Assembly: GCA_030540435.1 (NCBI GenBank)
Contig: JAUNWG010000002.1
Span: 8,276-72,275, forward strand
Direction: 5' to 3'
DNA from: Eubacteriales bacterium
GTDB taxonomy: Bacteria; Bacillota; Clostridia; Oscillospirales; Butyricicoccaceae
DNA: 64,000 nt
Numbering within the stretch: position 1 is the first letter of the stretch; each line of letters opens with the position of its first letter. A program made the position numbers and the translations under genes. The notes beneath the pieces are model-generated. The model made no database searches, was not told the origin of the DNA, and worked only from the letters and a program-made list of their open reading frames with translations. Shown one piece after another: positions 2,934 through 57,190 of this stretch.

Positions 2934-3151
2934 GGAAGGCAGCGGACTGTTTGCGGTACATCACCTTGGAACACCTGACAAAAATACAAAAACTTCTTAT
3001 AAAAAAACAATAAAATTGCACAATTCTCTCTGGCATCTGCTGGGAAGTCATGGTATACTATATATGGTTCTACAGTTTTATGATCCGCTGTAGACGGCAT
3101 CATGTGGGAAAACAAGAAAATTATATTATTTATTAAAAAGGTGGAATTGCA

Positions 3152-4489
3152 ATGGAACTGAAAATGACAGGTCTTACCTCTTTCCTGAACGAAGAGGAAA
3201 TCAAGTATATGAATCCGCTGGTAAATACAGCGAATCAGATGCTGCTGGAAAAATCCGGTCAGGGAAATGATTTCCTCGGCTGGGTCAATCTTCCGGTTGA
3301 TTATGACAAGGAAGAATTTGCACGCATTCAGGCTGCTGCCAAGAAGATCCAGAAGGACTCTGACGTTCTGGTTGTCATCGGTATCGGCGGCTCCTATCTG
3401 GGCGCACGCGCTGCAATCGAATTTGTAAACGGTCAGATGTACAATGCAGTCCGCGAGGAAGGCATCCCGGAGGTTTACTTCGTCGGCAACAACATCAGCT
3501 CTGCACAGGTAAACGATATCATCAAGATCATCGGCGACCGCGATTTCTCTGTGAACGTCATTTCCAAGTCTGGCAGAACGACCGAGCCGGCAATCGGTTT
3601 CCGCATCTTTAAGGCACTGTGTGAAAAGAAATACGGTAAGGAAGGCGCAAAGGACCGCATCTATGCAACCACCGATAAGGCACGCGGCGCACTCAAGGAA
3701 CTGGCTACCGCAGAAGGCTATGAGACTTTCGTTGTACCGGATGATGTAGGCGGCCGTTTCTCTGTTCTGTCCGCTGTTGGCCTGCTGCCGATCGCTGCTG
3801 CCGGCATCGACATTGAAGCAATGATGAAGGGTGCTGCTGATGCACGCGAGGCATTCCAGGATGGCACCACCTCGGATAATGACTGCTTCCGCTATGCAGC
3901 GATCCGCAATATCCTGTACCGCAAGGGCAAGACGACTGAGATCCTCGTCAACTATGATCCGTCCCTTGTGATGTTTGGCGAGTGGTATAAGCAGTTGTAC
4001 GCTGAATCCGAAGGCAAGGACCTGAAGGGCATCTTCCCGGTATCCGCTGCATTCTCCACCGACCTGCATTCCATCGGTCAGTTTATCCAGGACGGCACCC
4101 GCAACCTGTTCGAGACTGTCGTATGGGTCAAGGAGCAGCGCTCCGATATCACCATCGAGGAAGCAGAGGGCGATCTGGACGGCCTGAATTATCTGGCTGG
4201 CAAGACCATGCAGTTTGTCAACTCCAAGGCATATGCAGGCACCCTGCTGGCACACGTTGACGGCGGTGCACCGAATGTCCTGATCGAGGTCGAAAAGGCT
4301 GATGCATATAACTTCGGTTATCTGGTATACTTCTTCGAGAAGGCATGTGGCCTGAGTGGTTATCTGCTGGGCGTTAACCCGTTCAACCAGCCGGGCGTTG
4401 AGAGCTACAAGAAGAACATGTTCGCTCTGCTTGGCAAGCCGGGCTTCGAGGAAGAAAAGAAGATTCTGGAAGCTAGAATGGAAGGCTGA
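3152..4489 (+). CDS. pgi: glucose-6-phosphate isomerase
   Basis: 445 aa of the Firmicute-type Pgi family ([33 protein letters not shown]). AAGGTGGA RBS. Confidence 0.97.
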
Positions 4490-49713: not shown

Positions 49714-52323
49714 ATGACCGGAAGCGGCGGACTGAGTGCAGGGGAAGTACGTCTGTCTCGGCAACAGCATGGTTCCAACTGCCTGGAAAAGCAGGCCGGC
49801 AGCAGTCTGCTGTCCCGCTTTCTGGAAGGCTTTTCTGACCCGATCATCCGCATTTTGCTCATTGCACTTGCGATCAACGTTGTCTTTATGCTGCGCGGTG
49901 CGCCGTGGTTCGAAACAGCGGGCATTGCGATTGCGGTATTTCTAGCTACCTTTGTCTCTGCGCTGTCCGAATATGGCAGTGATGCTGCTTTCCGACGGAT
50001 GCAGGCGGAAGCCGCTGCCATTTCCTGTCGCGTGCGCAGAGACGGCGGTACCGTCTGTATCGTGCCGTCCGATGATATCGTCTGCGGCGACCTTGTCCTA
50101 TTACAGGCCGGGGAACGCATTCCAGCGGATGGCTTCCTGCGCGAAGGTAGTCTGGAGGTCGACCAATCCGCCCTGACGGGCGAAAGCCGGGAGGTTCACA
50201 AATACCCGCAGGAGAAAAACACGCCTGCGGATCACCCCGGCCTGCTGTTCCGCGGCAGTGTCATCCTGTCTGGTGAAGGGCTGATGGAGGTCACAGCAGT
50301 CGGCAGCAAGACCATGTATGGCGATATGGCAAAGCAGATGCAGGCGGATACGCGGGAAAGCCCGCTGCATGTACGTCTGGACGCACTCGCCGGCATGATC
50401 AGCAGACTGGGCATTGCGGCAGCTGTCCTTGTCGCTGCCTCCGATCTGTTTCTCTCCCTGTTTGTACAGCATGGGCTGTCACAGGGCATTGCAGCCATCT
50501 TCCAGCATGTCCTGCATGCGATTACCCTTGCCGTGACAGTGCTTGTTGTCGCTGTGCCGGAGGGTCTGCCGATGATGATAACCGTCGTTCTGTCCTCCAA
50601 CATGGTGCGCATGATGCGCGACCACGTGCTGGTGCGCCGCCTGACCGGCATCGAAACCGCAGGCAGTATGAATATCCTGTTTACCGATAAAACCGGTACG
50701 CTGACCTGCGGCCGCATGACAGCGGAGCTGGTCTTTGCCGGCGATGGCACGCGGTTTGACGGCATTCCCTCCCTGCGCGCCAGCGCTGCTGCACTGTACC
50801 GGCAGGTCTATGCCGATTGCCGCTATAATTCCGGTGGTTCGATCTCTGCGGGCGGTGTTTCCGGCGGCAATGCGACCGACCGCGCCCTGCTATATGCCAT
50901 CCTGCCGATGGCAGCGGCGGAAGCGCCCGAACAGCTTGGGGATAAGGTTTTGTTCGATTCCCGCCGCAAATATGCAGCGGTACGTCTGCCGTCGCGTGCG
51001 TTGACGCTGGTGCGCGGCGCGCCGGAGATCCTGTTGCCGCGCTGTACACAGTTTCTCGCGCCGGATGGCACGGCACATCCGCTGTCCAAGGCAATCCCGC
51101 AGCGTATCCTACAGGAACAGGCGGCAGAGGGCGGGCGCGTCATCGCCATGGCAGTCACCGACCGTACGGTGACGGCGGACAGCATCCCATCCGGTTTGAC
51201 GCTGACCGCGCTCATCGTCCTGCGCGACCCGGTGCGGCAGGAAACGCCGGAAGCGGTCTATCAGCTGAAAACCGCCGGCATCCGCACGGTCATGCTGACC
51301 GGCGATCACCCAGACACGGCACGTACCGTTGCACGGCGGTGCGGGCTTTTGGAGCCGGGGCATGACCTCATTGTGGACAGCGCCACACTTGCCGCGTGGT
51401 CAGACATAGAACTGGAACAAAAACTGCCGCAGCTGGCGGTTGTCGCGCGCGCCATGCCCTCCGACAAGGTGCGGCTTGTACAGGCGGCACAGCGCTGCGG
51501 TATGGTAGCAGGCATGACCGGTGACGGCGTAAACGACGCCCCTGCCCTCAAGCTGGCGGACGTCGGCTTCGCTATGGGCAGTGGGACGGCGGTGGCACGG
51601 GAGGCCGGGGATATTGTCATCACCAACGACAACCTCGCTTCCATTGCACGTGCGGTGCTGTACGGACGCACGATTTTTAAAAGCATTCGGAAATTCCTTG
51701 TTTTCCAGTTGACGATGAACGTCTGCGCCGTCGGTGTGTCCATCGTCGGGCCGCTGCTCGGGATCGACACGCCGGTTACAGTCATGCAAATGCTGTGGAT
51801 CAACCTGATTATGGATACACTTGCCGGGCTTGCTTTTTCCGGCGAACCGCCGCTGGCGGAATATATGCGTGAGCCGCCCAAACGACGGGATGAACCGGTA
51901 CTCAACCAGTATATGAAAAGCCAGCTCATTGGAACTGGAGTATATACCATTTTGCTGTGCGTCGTGTTTCTGTGGGCGCGACCGGTGCGGATTTTCTTCG
52001 GCTATGCCGCTGACCCGCTGCGCTTTTTGACCGCATTTTTCGCACTGTTTATCTTCTGCGGCATTTTCAATGCGTTCAACGCCCGCACCCATCGGCTGAA
52101 CCTGCTGGCGCATATTGCAAAAAACCCGCTGTTTGTATGCATTATGGCGGCTGTCACCGTCGTACAGCTCGCACTGATCTATTTCGGTGGTGCGCTGTTC
52201 CGCACGACACCGCTGGCACTGGTCGAGCTTGCCGCAGCGGCGATCCTTGCCTTGTCTGTCATTCCGGCAGATATCATACGGAAGCTGAGCCTGCGCATGC
52301 GCGGTCGGGAGCGGAATTTTTAA
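49714..52323 (+). CDS. cation-transporting P-type ATPase (Ca2+-type, P2)
   Basis: DKTGTLT phosphorylation motif and TGDGVNDAPALK hinge, with about 10 TM segments. ATG 49714 lies 7 nt after AGGAGG. The tracked start 49708 is too close to the RBS. Confidence 0.94.
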   Translation: MTGSGGLSAGEVRLSRQQHGSNCLEKQAGSSLLSRFLEGFSDPIIRILLIALAINVVFMLRGAPWFETAGIAIAVFLATFVSALSEYGSDAAFRRMQAEAAAISCRVRRDGGTVCIVPSDDIVCGDLVLLQAGERIPADGFLREGSLEVDQSALTGESREVHKYPQEKNTPADHPGLLFRGSVILSGEGLMEVTAVGSKTMYGDMAKQMQADTRESPLHVRLDALAGMISRLGIAAAVLVAASDLFLSLFVQHGLSQGIAAIFQHVLHAITLAVTVLVVAVPEGLPMMITVVLSSNMVRMMRDHVLVRRLTGIETAGSMNILFTDKTGTLTCGRMTAELVFAGDGTRFDGIPSLRASAAALYRQVYADCRYNSGGSISAGGVSGGNATDRALLYAILPMAAAEAPEQLGDKVLFDSRRKYAAVRLPSRALTLVRGAPEILLPRCTQFLAPDGTAHPLSKAIPQRILQEQAAEGGRVIAMAVTDRTVTADSIPSGLTLTALIVLRDPVRQETPEAVYQLKTAGIRTVMLTGDHPDTARTVARRCGLLEPGHDLIVDSATLAAWSDIELEQKLPQLAVVARAMPSDKVRLVQAAQRCGMVAGMTGDGVNDAPALKLADVGFAMGSGTAVAREAGDIVITNDNLASIARAVLYGRTIFKSIRKFLVFQLTMNVCAVGVSIVGPLLGIDTPVTVMQMLWINLIMDTLAGLAFSGEPPLAEYMREPPKRRDEPVLNQYMKSQLIGTGVYTILLCVVFLWARPVRIFFGYAADPLRFLTAFFALFIFCGIFNAFNARTHRLNLLAHIAKNPLFVCIMAAVTVVQLALIYFGGALFRTTPLALVELAAAAILALSVIPADIIRKLSLRMRGRERNF

Positions 52324-52333
52324 AACAAGGGTC

Positions 52334-52362
52334 TTGTGTCATAAACTTCTCTGTGCTATAAT
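52334..52362 (+). promoter_or_regulatory. putative promoter of the antitoxin-like sRNA
   Basis: TTGTGT (52334-39), 17 nt, TATAAT (52357-62), preceded by TGc (extended -10). No ORF follows. Confidence 0.5.
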
Positions 52363-52368
52363 ATACAT

Positions 52369-52445
52369 GCAATAAGAAAAGATTGTTTATTATGTACCAT
52401 CTATAGGTGGAGAAAACCCCGGAGTTGCCGCTCCGGGGTTTTCAT
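52369..52445 (+). ncRNA. candidate ~77-nt antitoxin sRNA (RNA II-like)
   Basis: Contains three blocks (52374-88, 52391-99, 52402-10) identical to the plus-strand sequence of the toxin translation-initiation region, and therefore complementary to the toxin mRNA. Ends in the bidirectional terminator ACCCCGGAG-TTGCCG-CTCCGGGGT + TTTT (52416-52442). Confidence 0.45.
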
Positions 52446-52458
52446 TATAGGCTGATTG

Positions 52459-52566
52459 TCACTTCTTGTCAGATCTCTTGACAAATCTTCTGTCCAGCCA
52501 CTTGCAAATATAGTACGCGGCTATACTCGCTCCGACAGAAATAAAAAAAGAAAAGATTGTTTCCAT
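52459..52566 (-). CDS. 35-aa hydrophobic peptide, Fst/PepA1-like type I toxin candidate
   Basis: GGAGGGAGGTGG (52585-52574) lies 7 nt before ATG 52566. METIFSFFISVGASIAAYYICKWLDRRFVKRSDKK has one TM helix plus a basic tail. Confidence 0.55.
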   Translation of the reverse strand: METIFSFFISVGASIAAYYICKWLDRRFVKRSDKK

Positions 52567-52614
52567 ATATGTACCACCTCCCTCCGCGTCAGTATAGGTG
52601 GTGACAACAGCATG

Positions 52615-52643
52615 ATTATACCATATCTCGACAGACTTCCCAA
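52615..52643 (-). promoter_or_regulatory. putative promoter of the toxin mRNA
   Basis: On the minus strand, TTGGGA (52643-38), 17 nt, TGgTATAAT (52623-15). Confidence 0.5.
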
Positions 52644-52659
52644 GCCTTTCCATCTAATT

Positions 52660-52694
52660 CTGTGGAAACCTCCCCGTTTCCACAGGATTTTTTT
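52660..52694 (+). terminator. strong plus-strand terminator upstream of the rib promoter
   Basis: 10-bp stem CTGTGGAAAC / GTTTCCACAG followed by GATTTTTTT. Confidence 0.7.
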
Positions 52695-52713
52695 GTAACA
52701 TTTCACGAAGCTA

Positions 52714-52742
52714 TTGCATTTCCTGTGGCTATGTAGTATACT
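52714..52742 (+). promoter_or_regulatory. putative promoter of the rib operon
   Basis: TTGCAT (52714-19), 17 nt, TATACT (52737-42), about 25 nt before the riboswitch. Confidence 0.55.
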
Positions 52743-52764
52743 TGTAATCGTCAAGAAAATAACA

Positions 52765-52886
52765 TTGTTCTTCAGGGCAGGGCGAAATTCCCTACCGGCG
52801 GTACAGCCCGCGACCCGCTGGAGTTTTCCAGCGGCTGATCCGGTTTCATTCCGGAGCCGACAGTTATAGTCTGGATGGAAGAAGAC
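52765..52886 (+). promoter_or_regulatory. FMN riboswitch (RFN element) aptamer
   Basis: GTTCTTCAGGGCAGGGCGAAATTCCCTACCGGCGGTACAGCCCGCGA...GCCGACAGTTATAGTCTGGATGGAAGAAGAC matches the conserved RFN core. Lies upstream of ribD. Confidence 0.93.
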
Positions 52887-52922
52887 ACAATCGGGGCATG
52901 TATCATGTCCTTTGTTTCTGGT

Positions 52923-52957
52923 GCCCTGTTCCGCAACATGCGGCAACAGGCTTTTTT
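52923..52957 (+). terminator. riboswitch expression-platform terminator
   Basis: GCCCTGTTCCGC...GCGGCAACAGGC hairpin followed by TTTTTT. Confidence 0.65.
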
Positions 52958-52966
52958 ATTTCGTCT

Positions 52967-52999
52967 GCCCTGTTTTGCTGCGTAAAACAGGGCTTTTTT
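52967..52999 (+). terminator. second tandem terminator hairpin before ribD
   Basis: Perfect 10-bp stem GCCCTGTTTT / AAAACAGGGC followed by TTTTTT. Confidence 0.6.
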
Positions 53000-53020
53000 G
53001 TTTGGAGCTGATATATAAAA

Positions 53021-54124
53021 ATGGCAGATCAAACTGATATTACCTATATGCGCCGCGCGCTGGAGCTTGCTGTCCGCGGCGCCGGACATGTTTCCCCTAA
53101 CCCGATGGTCGGCGCAGTGATCGTAAAGGATGGGCGCATCATTGGCGAGGGCTGGCATGAGCGCATCGGCGGCCTGCACGCGGAGCGCAATGCCTTCAAG
53201 CACTGCACCGAGGACTGCACCGGTGCAACAATCTATGTCACGCTGGAGCCGTGCTGCCACTGGGGCCGCACACCGCCCTGCACCGATGCGATCATGGAGC
53301 ATAAAATCTCCCGTGTGGTTGTCGGCTGTCTGGACCCAAATCCGCTGGTCGCGGGCAAGGGCCTGCGCATCCTGCGCGATGCAGGCATCGAATGCGTTGC
53401 CGGTGTGCTGGAGGATGAATGCCTTGCAGTCAACGAGATATTTTTCCACTATATTACAACAAAAACTCCGTTCGTCGTGATGAAATACGCCATGACGCTG
53501 GACGGCAGGATTGCCGCCTTTACCGGCGATTCCAAATGGATCACCAGTGAAACCGCACGCAAACACGCGCACGAAACACGCAAACGCCTGAGCGCCATCA
53601 TGGTCGGCATCGGTACGGTACTTGCCGACGACCCGATGCTCAACTGCCGCATTGAATCCGGCGTTGACCCGCTCCGTCTGGTGTGCGACAGCCATCTGCG
53701 CACACCGCTGAACAGCCAGCTTGTCCGCACAGCAAAGGACATCCCGACGTGGATTTTCTGTGCGGATGCCGACGTCAGCCGCAAAACCGCATTGGAGGAT
53801 GCCGGTGTCACCGTCATCCCGATGCCGGACGAAACCGGCACACATGTCGATCTCGCCGCCGCGATGCAGTATCTTGGGCAGCAACAGGTGGACAGCATCC
53901 TGCTCGAAGGCGGCGGCACGCTCAACGGCGAAGCGCTGCGGCTCGGCCTAGTACACCGCGTACAGGCCTATATTGCCCCCAAGCTGATCGGCGGCAGTGC
54001 AGCACATGGCCCGGTCGGCGGCGCAGGCATTGCCCGTATGGCGGATGCGCTGCAGCTGGATGAGCTTACCATTACACGGCTGGGAGAAGATATCCTCATC
54101 GAAGGCCGTATCCGAAAGGACTGA
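53021..54124 (+). CDS. ribD: bifunctional riboflavin biosynthesis deaminase/reductase
   Basis: 367 aa. HAERNA and TLEPCCHWGRTPPC deaminase zinc motifs plus a C-terminal reductase domain. Confidence 0.96.
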   Translation: MADQTDITYMRRALELAVRGAGHVSPNPMVGAVIVKDGRIIGEGWHERIGGLHAERNAFKHCTEDCTGATIYVTLEPCCHWGRTPPCTDAIMEHKISRVVVGCLDPNPLVAGKGLRILRDAGIECVAGVLEDECLAVNEIFFHYITTKTPFVVMKYAMTLDGRIAAFTGDSKWITSETARKHAHETRKRLSAIMVGIGTVLADDPMLNCRIESGVDPLRLVCDSHLRTPLNSQLVRTAKDIPTWIFCADADVSRKTALEDAGVTVIPMPDETGTHVDLAAAMQYLGQQQVDSILLEGGGTLNGEALRLGLVHRVQAYIAPKLIGGSAAHGPVGGAGIARMADALQLDELTITRLGEDILIEGRIRKD

Positions 54125-54128
54125 GAGT

Positions 54129-54788
54129 ATGTTTACCGGAATTGTCGAAGAAGTCGGTGAGATCACCGGCCTGCGCCAGACGGCGACCAGCGCGGTACTC
54201 GGTGTGCGCGCAAAGACCGTCCTTGGCGGCACAAAGCTGGGCGATTCCATCGCAGTCAACGGCGTATGCCTGACCGTCGTCCGGCTGACTGGCGACGGCT
54301 TTGAGGGCGATGTCATGCCGGAGACGCTGCGCCGTACCAACCTCGGCGCGCTGCGCCCGAAATCCCGCGTCAATCTCGAACGTGCCATGGCGGCAGACGG
54401 ACGCTTCGGCGGGCATATCGTCGCCGGGCATGTGGATGGCACCGGCACCATCACCGACCTGTCGCCGGAGGGCAATGCGGTCTGGGTGACCATTTCCGCC
54501 GCGCCGGAGATCCTGCGCTACATTGTAGAAAAAGGCTCGATCACCATTGACGGCATCAGCCTGACCGTCGCTTATGTTGACGATACCTGCTTTAAGGTTT
54601 CCATCATTCCGCACACCGGGCAGGAAACCACCCTGCTCACGCGAAAGTCCGGTTATATCGTGAATCTGGAATGCGATATCATCGGCAAATATATTGAAAA
54701 GCTCATGAAACCCGCACCGGAGGAGGAAACCAATTCCGCTGGCAGCGGAATCTCGGTGGAGTTTTTGACACAGAACGGATTTCTATAA
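54129..54788 (+). CDS. ribE: riboflavin synthase (alpha chain)
   Basis: [12 protein letters not shown]... with the internal repeat [15 protein letters not shown] 54129. Confidence 0.95.
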
Positions 54789-54811
54789 TGTCCTTTGAGG
54801 AGGCGTCTAGT

Positions 54812-55447
54812 ATGATGGAATATGATACTGTGGAACAAGCCCTCGCCGCACTGCGCGCGGGAAAAAATATTTTGGTCATCGACGACCCGGACCGTGAAAA
54901 CGAAGGGGATGTGATCTGCGCCGCAGAATTTGCTTCGACGGAAAATGTCAACTTCATGGCGACCCATGCCAAGGGTCTGATCTGTATGCCGATGAGCGGC
55001 GACTACTGTGACAAGCTCGATCTTCCGCAAATGGTCGAAAAGAACATGGACAATCACGAAACTGCATTTACGGTTTCCATCGACCATGTTTCCACTACCA
55101 CGGGTATTTCCGCAGAGGAACGCGGTATGACTGCCCGTGCGGTTGTTTCGCCGGATGCCAAGCCGGACGATTTCCGCCGTCCGGGGCACATGTTCCCGCT
55201 GCGCGCCAAGGAAGGCGGCGTATTTGTCCGCCGCGGTCACACGGAATCCACCGTCGACCTGTGCCGCCTTGCCGGTTTGCAGCCGGTCGGCCTGTGCTGT
55301 GAGATCATGCGGGACGACGGCACCATGATGCGCACCACGGAGCTAAAGGAATTTGCCAAACGGCACGGGCTGTGCATGATTACGGTTGCTGATCTGATCG
55401 CGTACCGCAAGCGTGTCGAAGCGCCGGCAGCACAGAAAACAGCTTAA
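54812..55447 (+). CDS. ribB: stand-alone 3,4-dihydroxy-2-butanone-4-phosphate synthase
   Basis: About 211 aa. [17 protein letters not shown] and [11 protein letters not shown] motifs. Ends at the DHBPS / GTP-cyclohydrolase II domain boundary. GAGGAGG RBS lies 8 nt upstream. Confidence 0.9.
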
Positions 55448-55498
55448 CGAGAAACAATATAAAATCCCACTGTGGATTTTCATAAAGGAGGAGCCTAT

Positions 55499-56707
55499 AT
55501 GGCTGATTTTGCAACGATTGAAGAAGCGCTGGAGGCGCTGCGGGCCGGAAAGAATATTCTGGTCATCGACGACCCGGATCGTGAAAACGAAGGCGATATC
55601 ATCTGCGCCGCCCAGTTTGCAACAACGGAAAATGTCAACTTTATGGCGACCTACGCCAAGGGCCTGATCTGTATGCCGATGAGCGGCGACTACTGTGACA
55701 AGCTCGGTCTGCCGCCAATGGTGGAAAAGAATACCGATAACCATGAGACGGCATTTACCGTTTCCATCGACTATATCAAGACAACCACCGGTATTTCCGC
55801 CGTCGAGCGTTCGCTGACAGCAATGATGACCGTCAATCCCGAAGCAAAGCCGGAGCATTTCCGCCGTCCGGGGCATATGTTCCCGCTGCGCGCACGTGAA
55901 GGCGGCGTTCTCATCCGCTCCGGTCACACCGAAGCTACCGTTGATCTGTGCCGTCTGGCTGGTCTGGCGCCGGTGGGACTGTGCTGTGAGATCATGCGGG
56001 ACGACGGCACGATGATGCGCACGACTGAGCTGGTCGAATTTGCAAAAGAGCATGATCTGGTCATGATCTCCATTGCCGACCTGATCGCGTACCGTATGCG
56101 CGACAAGGAAGAATCTCTGGTGGAAGAGGTCGCCTGCGCAGATATGCCGACCAAATATGGCCATTTTAAAATCCACGGCTTTGTCAACAAGCTGTCCGGC
56201 GAGCACCATGTCGCCCTGACGATGGGAGATATTGCAGACGGCAAGCCGGTACTGTGCCGTGTCCACTCGGAATGCCTGACCGGTGATACCTTTGGCTCCG
56301 CACGCTGCGACTGCGGCGAGCAACTGTCCGCTGCGCTGACTGCCATTGCAAAGGAAGGCAGAGGTATGCTGCTGTACCTGCGGCAGGAAGGCCGCGGCAT
56401 CGGCCTGATCAACAAGCTGCGTGCCTATGAGCTGCAGGAGCAGGGCTATGACACCGTCGATGCAAACATCAAGCTCGGCTTTGCGCCTGACCTGCGCGAG
56501 TATGGCATGGGTGCACAGATTTTGGTTGCGCTTGGCGTCCATCAGCTCCGTCTGATGACCAATAATCCCACCAAGATCCACGGCCTGTCCGGCTATGGCC
56601 TGGAGATTGTAGAACGTGTTCCGATTCAGATCGCTGCCAATCCGGTGGATGCCTTTTATCTGAAAACCAAGCAGGAACGCATGGATCATATGACAGAATA
56701 CAAATAA
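55499..56707 (+). CDS. ribBA: bifunctional DHBP synthase / GTP cyclohydrolase II
   Basis: About 402 aa. The N-terminal half is highly similar to the preceding gene. The C-terminal half has the HSECLTGD...CDCG cyclohydrolase II zinc motif. Confidence 0.96.
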
Positions 56708-56728
56708 GATAGCAGGAGGAAATCGATT

Positions 56729-57190
56729 ATGAAGCTGTTAGAAGGAAATGTAGTAGGTACTGGTTTAAAGGTCGGCATTGTTGCTGCCCGTTTCAATGAA
56801 TTTATCGTCGGCAAGCTGGTTTCCGGCGCACAGGATGCACTGGTCCGTCACGGCGTAGACGATGCGGACATCGAAATCGCATGGGTTCCGGGTGCATTTG
56901 AGATCCCGCTGGTCGCACAAAAGATGGCGCAGTCCGGCAAGTATGACATGGTTCTTTGCCTTGGCGCAGTTATCCGTGGTTCGACCTCGCATTATGACCT
57001 TGTATGCAATGAGTGCGCAAAGGGCATTGCACAGGTCAGCCTGTCCGCTGGTATTCCGGTGCTGTTTGGCGTTGTCACCACCGATACGATCGAACAGGCG
57101 ATCGAGCGCGCTGGCACCAAGGCTGGCAACAAGGGCTATGATGTGGCATGCTCCGGCATTGAGATGGCAAATCTGCTGCGCAAGCTGTAA
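56729..57190 (+). CDS. ribH: 6,7-dimethyl-8-ribityllumazine synthase
   Basis: 153 aa. [11 protein letters not shown] and WVPGAFEIP motifs. Confidence 0.96.

Follow-up and report, generated by a model that had tools for sequence, protein, structure and literature searches.

A probable par-type toxin-antitoxin module on a Butyricicoccaceae chromosome and its widespread, almost never annotated relatives

What is encoded by the intergenic DNA that separates a P-type cation ATPase gene from a flavin mononucleotide (FMN) riboswitch in a gut anaerobe of the Butyricicoccaceae? The locus lies in a stretch of 64,000 nucleotides (nt) from an Eubacteriales bacterium (NCBI GenBank assembly GCA_030540435.1, contig JAUNWG010000002.1, positions 8,276 to 72,275 of the forward strand), here called the window, and all coordinates without a locus label are positions in it. 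An earlier note, made from the sequence alone, had proposed that the locus is a type I toxin-antitoxin module laid out like the par locus of plasmid pAD1, and on reading both strands from 52300 to 52720 all of its module coordinates and sequences check out. Our analysis makes it very probable that this chromosomal locus encodes a type I toxin-antitoxin module with the par (Fst/RNA I-RNA II) design and, judged by its sequence, it is a diverged member of the Fst/par kind and not a new kind. We infer both transcripts and their ends, translation of the open reading frame (ORF), toxicity of its product and a role for the module at this chromosomal site.

Predicted RNAs of the module and their pairing

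The elements of the proposed module, toxin side first, are the following.

52615-52643, minus strand: toxin promoter TTGGGA-17-TGgTATAAT with an extended -10 element, from the promoter scan (10/12, with TG)
52409-52608, minus strand: predicted toxin mRNA of about 200 nt, the RNA I equivalent, its ends deduced from promoter and terminator
52597-52603, minus strand: leader CACCACC, a putative anti-Shine-Dalgarno sequence pairing with GGUGGUA at the 3' end of the Shine-Dalgarno (SD) sequence
52574-52585, minus strand: SD sequence GGAGGGAGGTGG, read from the sequence and very strong
52459-52566, minus strand: toxin ORF, 35 amino acids plus stop codon, translated as METIFSFFISVGASIAAYYICKWLDRRFVKRSDKK
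52545-52608, minus strand: predicted target region on the toxin mRNA, comprising the toxin-side copies of repeats D1, D3 and D2 with the SD core unpaired between them (RNAduplex)
52334-52362, plus strand: antitoxin promoter TTGTGT-17-TGcTATAAT with an extended -10 element, read from the sequence
52369-52446, plus strand: predicted antitoxin RNA of about 78 nt, the RNA II equivalent, with a largely open 5' tail followed by the terminator hairpin
52371-52388, plus strand: antitoxin copy of repeat D1, 17/18 identical to 52545-52562 with an exact core of 15/15, complementary to toxin codons 2-7
52391-52402, plus strand: antitoxin copy of repeat D3, 11/12 identical to 52568-52579, complementary to the 3' end of the SD sequence and the spacer before the AUG
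52402-52417, plus strand: antitoxin copy of repeat D2, 14/16 identical to 52593-52608, complementary to the first 16 nt of the toxin mRNA
52412-52443, both strands: putative common bidirectional intrinsic-terminator hairpin GAAAACCCCGGAG-6 nt-CTCCGGGGTTTTC, with 13-nt arms that are 100% complementary

On the antitoxin side, the 5' tail of the short RNA directly repeats the toxin start region and would therefore be complementary to the toxin mRNA. The three repeat blocks had been described earlier as exact over 15/15, 9/9 and 9/9 nt; an independent repeat finder recovers them, lengthens them to 18, 12 and 16 nt and places D1, D3 and D2 in the same order on both sides. The 15-mer AAGAAAAGATTGTTT at the core of D1 has two sites only in the 64-kb window, where 0.01 would be expected by chance, and a local alignment of the toxin 5' region with the region past the hairpin scores 42, against a mean of 14 and a maximum of 19 for shuffled sequences. 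RNAduplex, one of the checks suggested by the earlier note, predicts that the antitoxin 5' tail binds the toxin initiation region at -43.5 kcal/mol, with the SD core looped out and three stretches paired, namely the first 16 nt of the mRNA, the last SD bases together with the spacer, and codons 2-7.

The promoter at 52334-52362 had been claimed to have no ORF behind it; it is present in the sequence, and the ORF list holds none behind it. The promoter scan omits this promoter because its -35 hexamer has no more than 3/6 matching positions. The predicted antitoxin RNA folds at -31.9 kcal/mol (z = -5.62). The hairpin at 52412-52443, which starts 15 nt beyond the toxin stop codon and has A-rich and T-rich flanks, is the dominant structure in both predicted RNAs and, as the earlier note proposed, could terminate transcription in either direction. 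The terminator scan missed it, probably since the A/T ends of the stem consume the T-run.

On the minus strand, the promoter scan recovered the TG-bearing promoter that had been read at 52643-52615, and translation from the ATG at 52566 yields the 35-codon ORF behind the strong SD sequence, as had been described. The peptide has the anticipated layout of a hydrophobic helix followed by a basic tail, with a grand average of hydropathy (GRAVY) of 1.7 over residues 3-21 and a charge of about +3.8 in the tail DRRFVKRSDKK. The predicted toxin mRNA folds at -66.9 kcal/mol (z = -3.96); both the minimum-energy and the centroid structures contain the predicted CACCACC/GGUGGUA pairing, and the predicted fold also brings the 5' end into pairing with sequence close to the stop codon. 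An upstream-extended ORF of 64 amino acids was rejected as a real gene, for the toxin promoter lies inside it, the SD sequence precedes the internal ATG and conservation in the family described below begins at that internal ATG.

In the mechanism that we propose, the minus strand would give rise to an mRNA of about 200 nt encoding a 35-amino-acid, single-helix membrane peptide, and the plus strand to a convergent, untranslated RNA of about 78 nt whose overlap with the mRNA would be confined to the common terminator hairpin. Complementarity would come from the 5' tail of the short RNA, in which the leader, the start region and codons 2-7 of the toxin are directly repeated in condensed form. Pairing on both sides of the SD sequence and beside the start codon, with the AUG in a small internal loop, would keep ribosomes from loading, and the 5' stem of the mRNA (CACCACC/GGUGGUA) would act as a second block to translation. 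By analogy with par of pAD1, a drop in antitoxin would allow the peptide to be made and inserted into the membrane, leading to arrest or death of the cell (PMC7472228).

Recurrence of the arrangement in homologous loci

The window peptide belongs to a large family with the motif AYYICKWLD. When one representative genome per species was scanned with the pattern [AVS]AYYICKW, at least 494 loci were confirmed. The carriers include Oscillospiraceae, Lachnospiraceae, Ruminococcus, Faecalibacterium, Veillonella, Dialister, Phascolarctobacterium, Erysipelotrichaceae and others. A parsed set of 94 family ORF instances, 26-37 amino acids in length, was used to examine the surroundings of the gene. Nearly all of these ORFs are preceded by an SD sequence of the GGAGGTG or GGGGGTG type, TTG or GTG starts are frequent, and tandem arrays reach up to four copies. 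In an alignment of 47 family peptides, Y19, C21, K22, W23 and L24 are invariant, and F7, S10, A13, A17, Y18, I20 and D25 are conserved in at least 90%.

The par-like design proposed for the window recurs across the family, with convergent promoters, a common terminator and direct repeats at fixed geometry. Of the 91 units with enough flank to test, 90 have a GC-rich hairpin with A/T-rich flanks after the stop codon, and a promoter facing this hairpin scores 11 or more in 78/90 units, compared with 1/90 on the control strand. The -10 element of this antitoxin promoter ends 35-55 nt from the hairpin (49 nt in the window) and carries TG in 66 cases, while the toxin promoter has TG in 73/90 units and, in most of them, a -10 element that ends 40-50 nt before the start codon. 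The loops of the family terminators are variable and often xGCxA-like.

One outcome named beforehand as speaking against the module, repeats that are not kept together with the ORF, did not occur. In 84 of 90 units, the toxin 5' region and the 130 nt past the hairpin share a direct repeat that outscores each of 30 shuffles, and reverse-complement controls score no higher than shuffled sequence; in most units one copy falls at about -10 to +22 relative to the toxin start codon and the other 0-40 nt past the hairpin. Moreover, predicted duplexes average -35.8 kcal/mol for cognate RNA pairs, compared with -17.5 kcal/mol for non-cognate pairs and -16.7 kcal/mol for shuffled tails, and in 75/87 units the cognate pair ranks first among nine. 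Taken together, the stability of cognate over non-cognate duplexes and the conservation of the repeats show that the repeats co-vary with their cognate toxin gene, as would be expected under selection for RNA-RNA pairing.

The earlier suggestion that the leader CCACC sequesters the SD sequence fared less evenly: it agrees with the folds predicted for the window, but the enrichment across the family is moderate, with the SD sequence at least 70% paired in 38/80 family leaders and in 19/80 shuffled leaders.

Tandem arrays of 3-4 complete units are found in Ruminococcus, Faecalibacterium prausnitzii and Phascolarctobacterium (loci L076, 2275-3440; L004, 2652-3454; L005; and L046, 2148-3078), and the copies inside one array have diverged from each other. 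In Clostridium sp. AM58-1XD (L022, 2406-3576), one unit with its ORF at 3001-3087 lies between two transfer RNA (tRNA) genes (2406-2478 and 3504-3576) that score 74 bits each, and this placement between equal-scoring tRNA genes may reflect an insertion or a duplication.

Probable kinship with Fst and competing explanations

How closely is this family related to the Fst toxins? Par of pAD1 from Enterococcus faecalis resembles the window in its convergent promoters, in an overlap of the two RNAs at the bidirectional terminator only (the RNA ends in the window being predicted), in oppositely transcribed direct repeats that confer complementarity at the translation-initiation region of the toxin, and in a one-helix toxin of about 30 amino acids with a charged tail; it also has a 5' stem-loop that sequesters the ribosome-binding site, to which the predicted CACCACC/GGUGGUA stem of the window may correspond (PMC7472228). 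Unlike in par of pAD1, the three repeat blocks of the window flank the SD core and do not cover it, the terminator loops CGGCAA (toxin RNA) and UUGCCG (antitoxin RNA) both lack the YUNR U-turn motif by which the interaction is started in par loci, and the module is not plasmid-borne but chromosomal, between housekeeping genes. The Fst/Ldr signature comprises a conserved tryptophan between the hydrophobic helix and the charged C-terminus and, in the majority of members, a P/D/S/T-X-X-X-G(C) motif in the helix (Weaver 2020, PMC7472228, which defines the Fst family signature and the par design and notes a DXXXG clade in Streptococcus pneumoniae; Fozo 2010, PMC2887945). The tryptophan has its counterpart in W23, which is invariant in the 47 aligned family peptides. 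At the expected place of the helix motif the window has S10-V-G-A-S14; family position 14 is S, N or G, and some members, for example those with SVAAG, fit SXXXG literally.

Among known systems, the closest sequence relatives are probably the Fst-like loci of S. pneumoniae (fst-A/B/C; SPV_2131/2132 and others in strain D39), by way of the Rfam family RF02442. This family, the Streptococcus "SpF66 sRNA" (sRNA, small RNA), has a consensus that encodes MSLILELVLTIIADVIAGIILYFVCKWLDGKE, and hhalign matches the family profile to this peptide at 97.6% probability (E = 4e-12), aligning ...ADVIAGIILYFVCKWLDGKE with ...ISVGASIAAYYICKWLDRR, the S10-S14 positions falling on D-V-I-A-G of the RF02442 peptide. 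RF02442 is typed 'Gene; sRNA' in Rfam. With an SD sequence and a 32-codon ORF whose product would be Fst-like, its consensus probably represents a toxin mRNA and not a non-coding sRNA. Because of the encoded peptide and the remark on the DXXXG clade (PMC7472228), we infer that RF02442 models the pneumococcal fst toxin mRNAs of that clade. Its gathering score of 42 bits is passed by family loci on an E. faecium plasmid (L083, 49 bits) and in Ruminococcus (L076, 48.6 and 44.6 bits) and Dialister (L012, 46.6 bits), and the consensus also matches loci L015 and L084. A literature search for "SpF66" returned malaria-vaccine papers only. Three Fst-like loci are described in pneumococcal D39, where the antitoxin srf-07 has 76 nt (Slager 2018, PMC6212727), compared with about 78 nt predicted for the window. 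Experiments on pneumococcal fst-B demonstrated an antisense sRNA and toxicity in E. coli, and the same work included a Clostridium bolteae sequence in its alignment of Ldr/Fst members (Fozo 2010, PMC2887945); that sequence may belong to the AYYICKWLD clade. The window differs from the pneumococcal clade in having S-x-x-x-S in place of D-x-x-x-G and in that its family is hosted by gut anaerobes.

Two further systems invite comparison. SprA1/SprA1AS of Staphylococcus aureus, which encodes PepA1, shares the W-L-x-R-R layout of the basic tail, and SprA1AS, like the predicted antitoxin of the window, is encoded at the 3' side and acts outside the overlap region (PMC8594479). The hhalign alignment, which is not significant, sets S14 against the G of PXXXGC and W23 against the tryptophan of PepA1, and unlike PepA1 the AYYICKWLD family lacks the PXXXGC motif. 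The CD toxins and RCd antitoxins of Clostridioides difficile resemble the window in pairing small hydrophobic toxins with charged tails with antisense RNA antitoxins, and they are type I systems of Clostridia that often reside on prophages (PMC6563280). However, the C. difficile toxins are longer (the model NF047374 has 51 positions), and the matches of NF047374 to the AYYICKWLD family are at chance level (E 0.04-0.12).

Several results weigh against the kinship with Fst or against the par-type reading as a whole. When the Fst models proposed as a check by the earlier note, Pfam PF13955 and NCBIfam NF033608, were run, neither matched the window peptide or five relatives, whereas the controls passed the NF033608 cut-off of 26 (Fst 34.7 bits, PepA1 58.3 bits); the RF02442-encoded peptide itself reaches 18.9 bits on NF033608 (E ~1e-3), which is below the threshold. 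With hhalign, the family profile yields 28.6% for PepA1 and 8% for pAD1 Fst, values that are not significant alone, in a register that is as expected, including S10-S14 on the G of PXXXG. The window toxin mRNA scores 18 bits on RF02442 (52400-52605; E = 0.034 on 381 nt), below the gathering score. The Rfam family of Fst antitoxins, presumably RF01797 (fstAT), has no match in the window (E <= 10) or in 12 relatives (E <= 1). Among sequences of solved structures we found no Fst or PepA1 match, with chance transmembrane matches only. In addition, the pattern [AVS]AYYICKW used for the genome scan partly builds in the invariance of the motif. The earlier description of the peptide as Fst/PepA1-like is supported with the qualification that the kinship is distant: it is indicated by the RF02442-encoded peptide, the Fst models do not match and the likeness to PepA1 is not significant.

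Could the locus have a different function, or none? One alternative is that the ORF product is a small membrane protein that does no harm, perhaps an accessory subunit of the P-type Ca-ATPase encoded beside it, and that an antisense RNA tunes its level. Small single-helix regulators of P-type ATPases are well established, as in KdpF, sarcolipin and phospholamban, and the module sits directly 3' of a cation ATPase gene. Yet an ATPase or RibD homolog is found at 0/164 other family loci (flanks of about 3 kb on each side), on which count we rejected a functional link to the ATPase or rib genes. Moreover, the family occurs on plasmids and viral contigs and forms tandem arrays, as addiction modules typically do, and both the tight double block to translation that is predicted here and the link to a clade with shown toxicity favour a toxin, so that we regard an ATPase subunit as improbable. 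We consider it somewhat less probable still that the plus-strand repeats are the decayed remnant of a tandem toxin copy, in a relic locus or one whose toxin is otherwise silent. Tandem duplication is indeed common in the family, and on the minus strand the repeat region resembles a toxin 5' region from which the SD sequence has been deleted. Against decay, the distance between the hairpin and the extended -10 promoter that faces it is typical of the family, in which such a promoter is present in most units and hardly ever on the control strand, and the blocks are exact or nearly so despite wide sequence differences between loci, which argues for continuing selection on pairing. We believe that partial duplication is likely to be the origin of the antitoxin and not an alternative to it.

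There is, finally, next to no probability that ORF, promoters, hairpin and repeats coincide by chance in AT-rich intergenic DNA. The lower G+C content of the module region (42-45%, compared with 54% in the whole window) does yield more promoter-like matches, but the rarity of the 15-mer, a repeat score far over all shuffles and the presence of the same arrangement in hundreds of loci refute a chance origin.

Distribution, possible cassette movement and setting of the module

Outside the species-representative genomes, relatives were found by tblastn on 418 plasmids, 362 of them from Enterococcus, and on 83 predicted viral contigs. No annotated feature underlies the 30 plasmid matches listed, the plasmid gene table being incomplete, and a plasmid search with the RF02442 peptide gave two matches, both unannotated. 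On the E. faecium plasmid pUCH1-1 (NZ_CP096212.1; locus L083, 1430-1700), the homolog MKILFDFVFAIMAEVAAHYICKWLDCKFAKKDSKPTR adjoins ssb and an AbiEii-family gene, and it has a terminator, direct repeat and convergent promoter like those of the window module. Protein databases capture little of the family: an exhaustive HMMER search of 1.84 billion cluster representatives returned 73 at E <= 1e-3, many of them inside over-long ORF calls, and a word-based search of 5.8 billion proteins with the 64-amino-acid extended ORF returned two proteins only, both mis-called ORFs containing ...SFFISV.AS..AYYICKWLDR. The contigs of these two carry the terminator hairpin, the convergent extended -10 promoter and the direct repeat of the toxin start, as in the window, and the sequence of the direct repeat differs between the two contigs and the window.

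The type I par kind is already known; its AYYICKWLD branch, though very widespread among gut bacteria, has almost always escaped annotation. The clade was probably glimpsed as early as 2010, in one or two Clostridiales. We found no papers on the YYICKWL or ICKWLD motif in the literature searched, where the breadth of the family in gut anaerobes and Enterococcus plasmids, its near-absence from annotation and the identity of cassettes between unrelated hosts all appear to be unreported. Taken alone, the window locus is of modest interest as one more par-type module in a gut anaerobe. The family carries more weight, spanning hundreds of species-representative genomes, plasmids and viral contigs; a protein model, an RNA model and a census would close the annotation gap for gut Firmicutes and would yield candidate plasmid-stabilising or phage-related functions in clinically relevant Enterococcus plasmids.

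A cassette of about 330-400 bp is 96-98% identical between Holdemanella biformis DSM 3989, Eubacterium sp. TM05-53, an uncultured bacterium and a Gastranaerophilales metagenome-assembled genome (MAG), with copies at L063 2940-3290, L052 2450-2800, L053 1995-2340 and L059 2940-3242. The homology extends from the toxin promoter to just past the antitoxin promoter, and the flanks are unrelated, which suggests that the cassette itself may move horizontally, with binning errors possible for MAGs. This subfamily has two back-to-back terminators in place of one common hairpin. Near-identical cassettes in unrelated hosts permit a test of the horizontal movement of type I modules. Furthermore, a Fusicatenibacter saccharivorans bin (L011) and a Dialister isolate (L012) are 96-97% identical over about 6 kb that includes the unit, which reflects either a large mobile element that crosses classes or a binning error. 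More tentatively, and with slightly less than even confidence, we suggest that the AYYICKWLD clade may be among the most abundant type I toxin-antitoxin families of the gut (hosted by Clostridia, Negativicutes, Erysipelotrichia, Enterococcus plasmids and phages), that it is essentially invisible to annotation and that it is perhaps spreading as the 330-400 bp cassette. If true, the spread of a cassette between distant hosts would run counter to the published opinion that horizontal transfer does not disperse type I modules.

In the window, the chromosomal setting agrees with what had been described, a Ca-ATPase gene on one side and the rib riboswitch on the other: the ATPase gene, identified by P-type ATPase families of Pfam, stops at 52323, adjoining the module, and the FMN riboswitch occupies 52764-52891 on the other flank (113 bits). 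Between the ATPase stop and the end of the common hairpin at 52443 there is no plus-strand terminator, and read-through transcripts of the ATPase gene would thus include the entire antitoxin sequence as a 3' untranslated region. An extra plus-strand terminator lies at 52656-52689. The earlier note had seen room here for a second, fully overlapping antisense RNA, a proposal that we rejected as a family feature, since a terminator occupies the equivalent place in 13/88 units only and several of these terminators belong to adjacent tandem units; this terminator is more likely a stop for read-through ahead of the rib promoter/FMN riboswitch. Within the 3' end of the toxin ORF, a near-consensus minus-strand promoter-like site (52472-52444, CTGACA-17-TATAAT, 11/12) would have its start site in the terminator stem, from which a transcript antisense to the antitoxin would be possible. 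The site was found in the window alone among 77 family units and is probably due to chance or lineage-specific. Beyond the FMN riboswitch, the region 52764-57190 contains ribD, ribE, a stand-alone ribB-like gene (54788-55447, 219 amino acids), a full ribBA (55472-56707) and ribH, such that the rib operon has an extra paralog of 3,4-dihydroxy-2-butanone 4-phosphate (DHBP) synthase.

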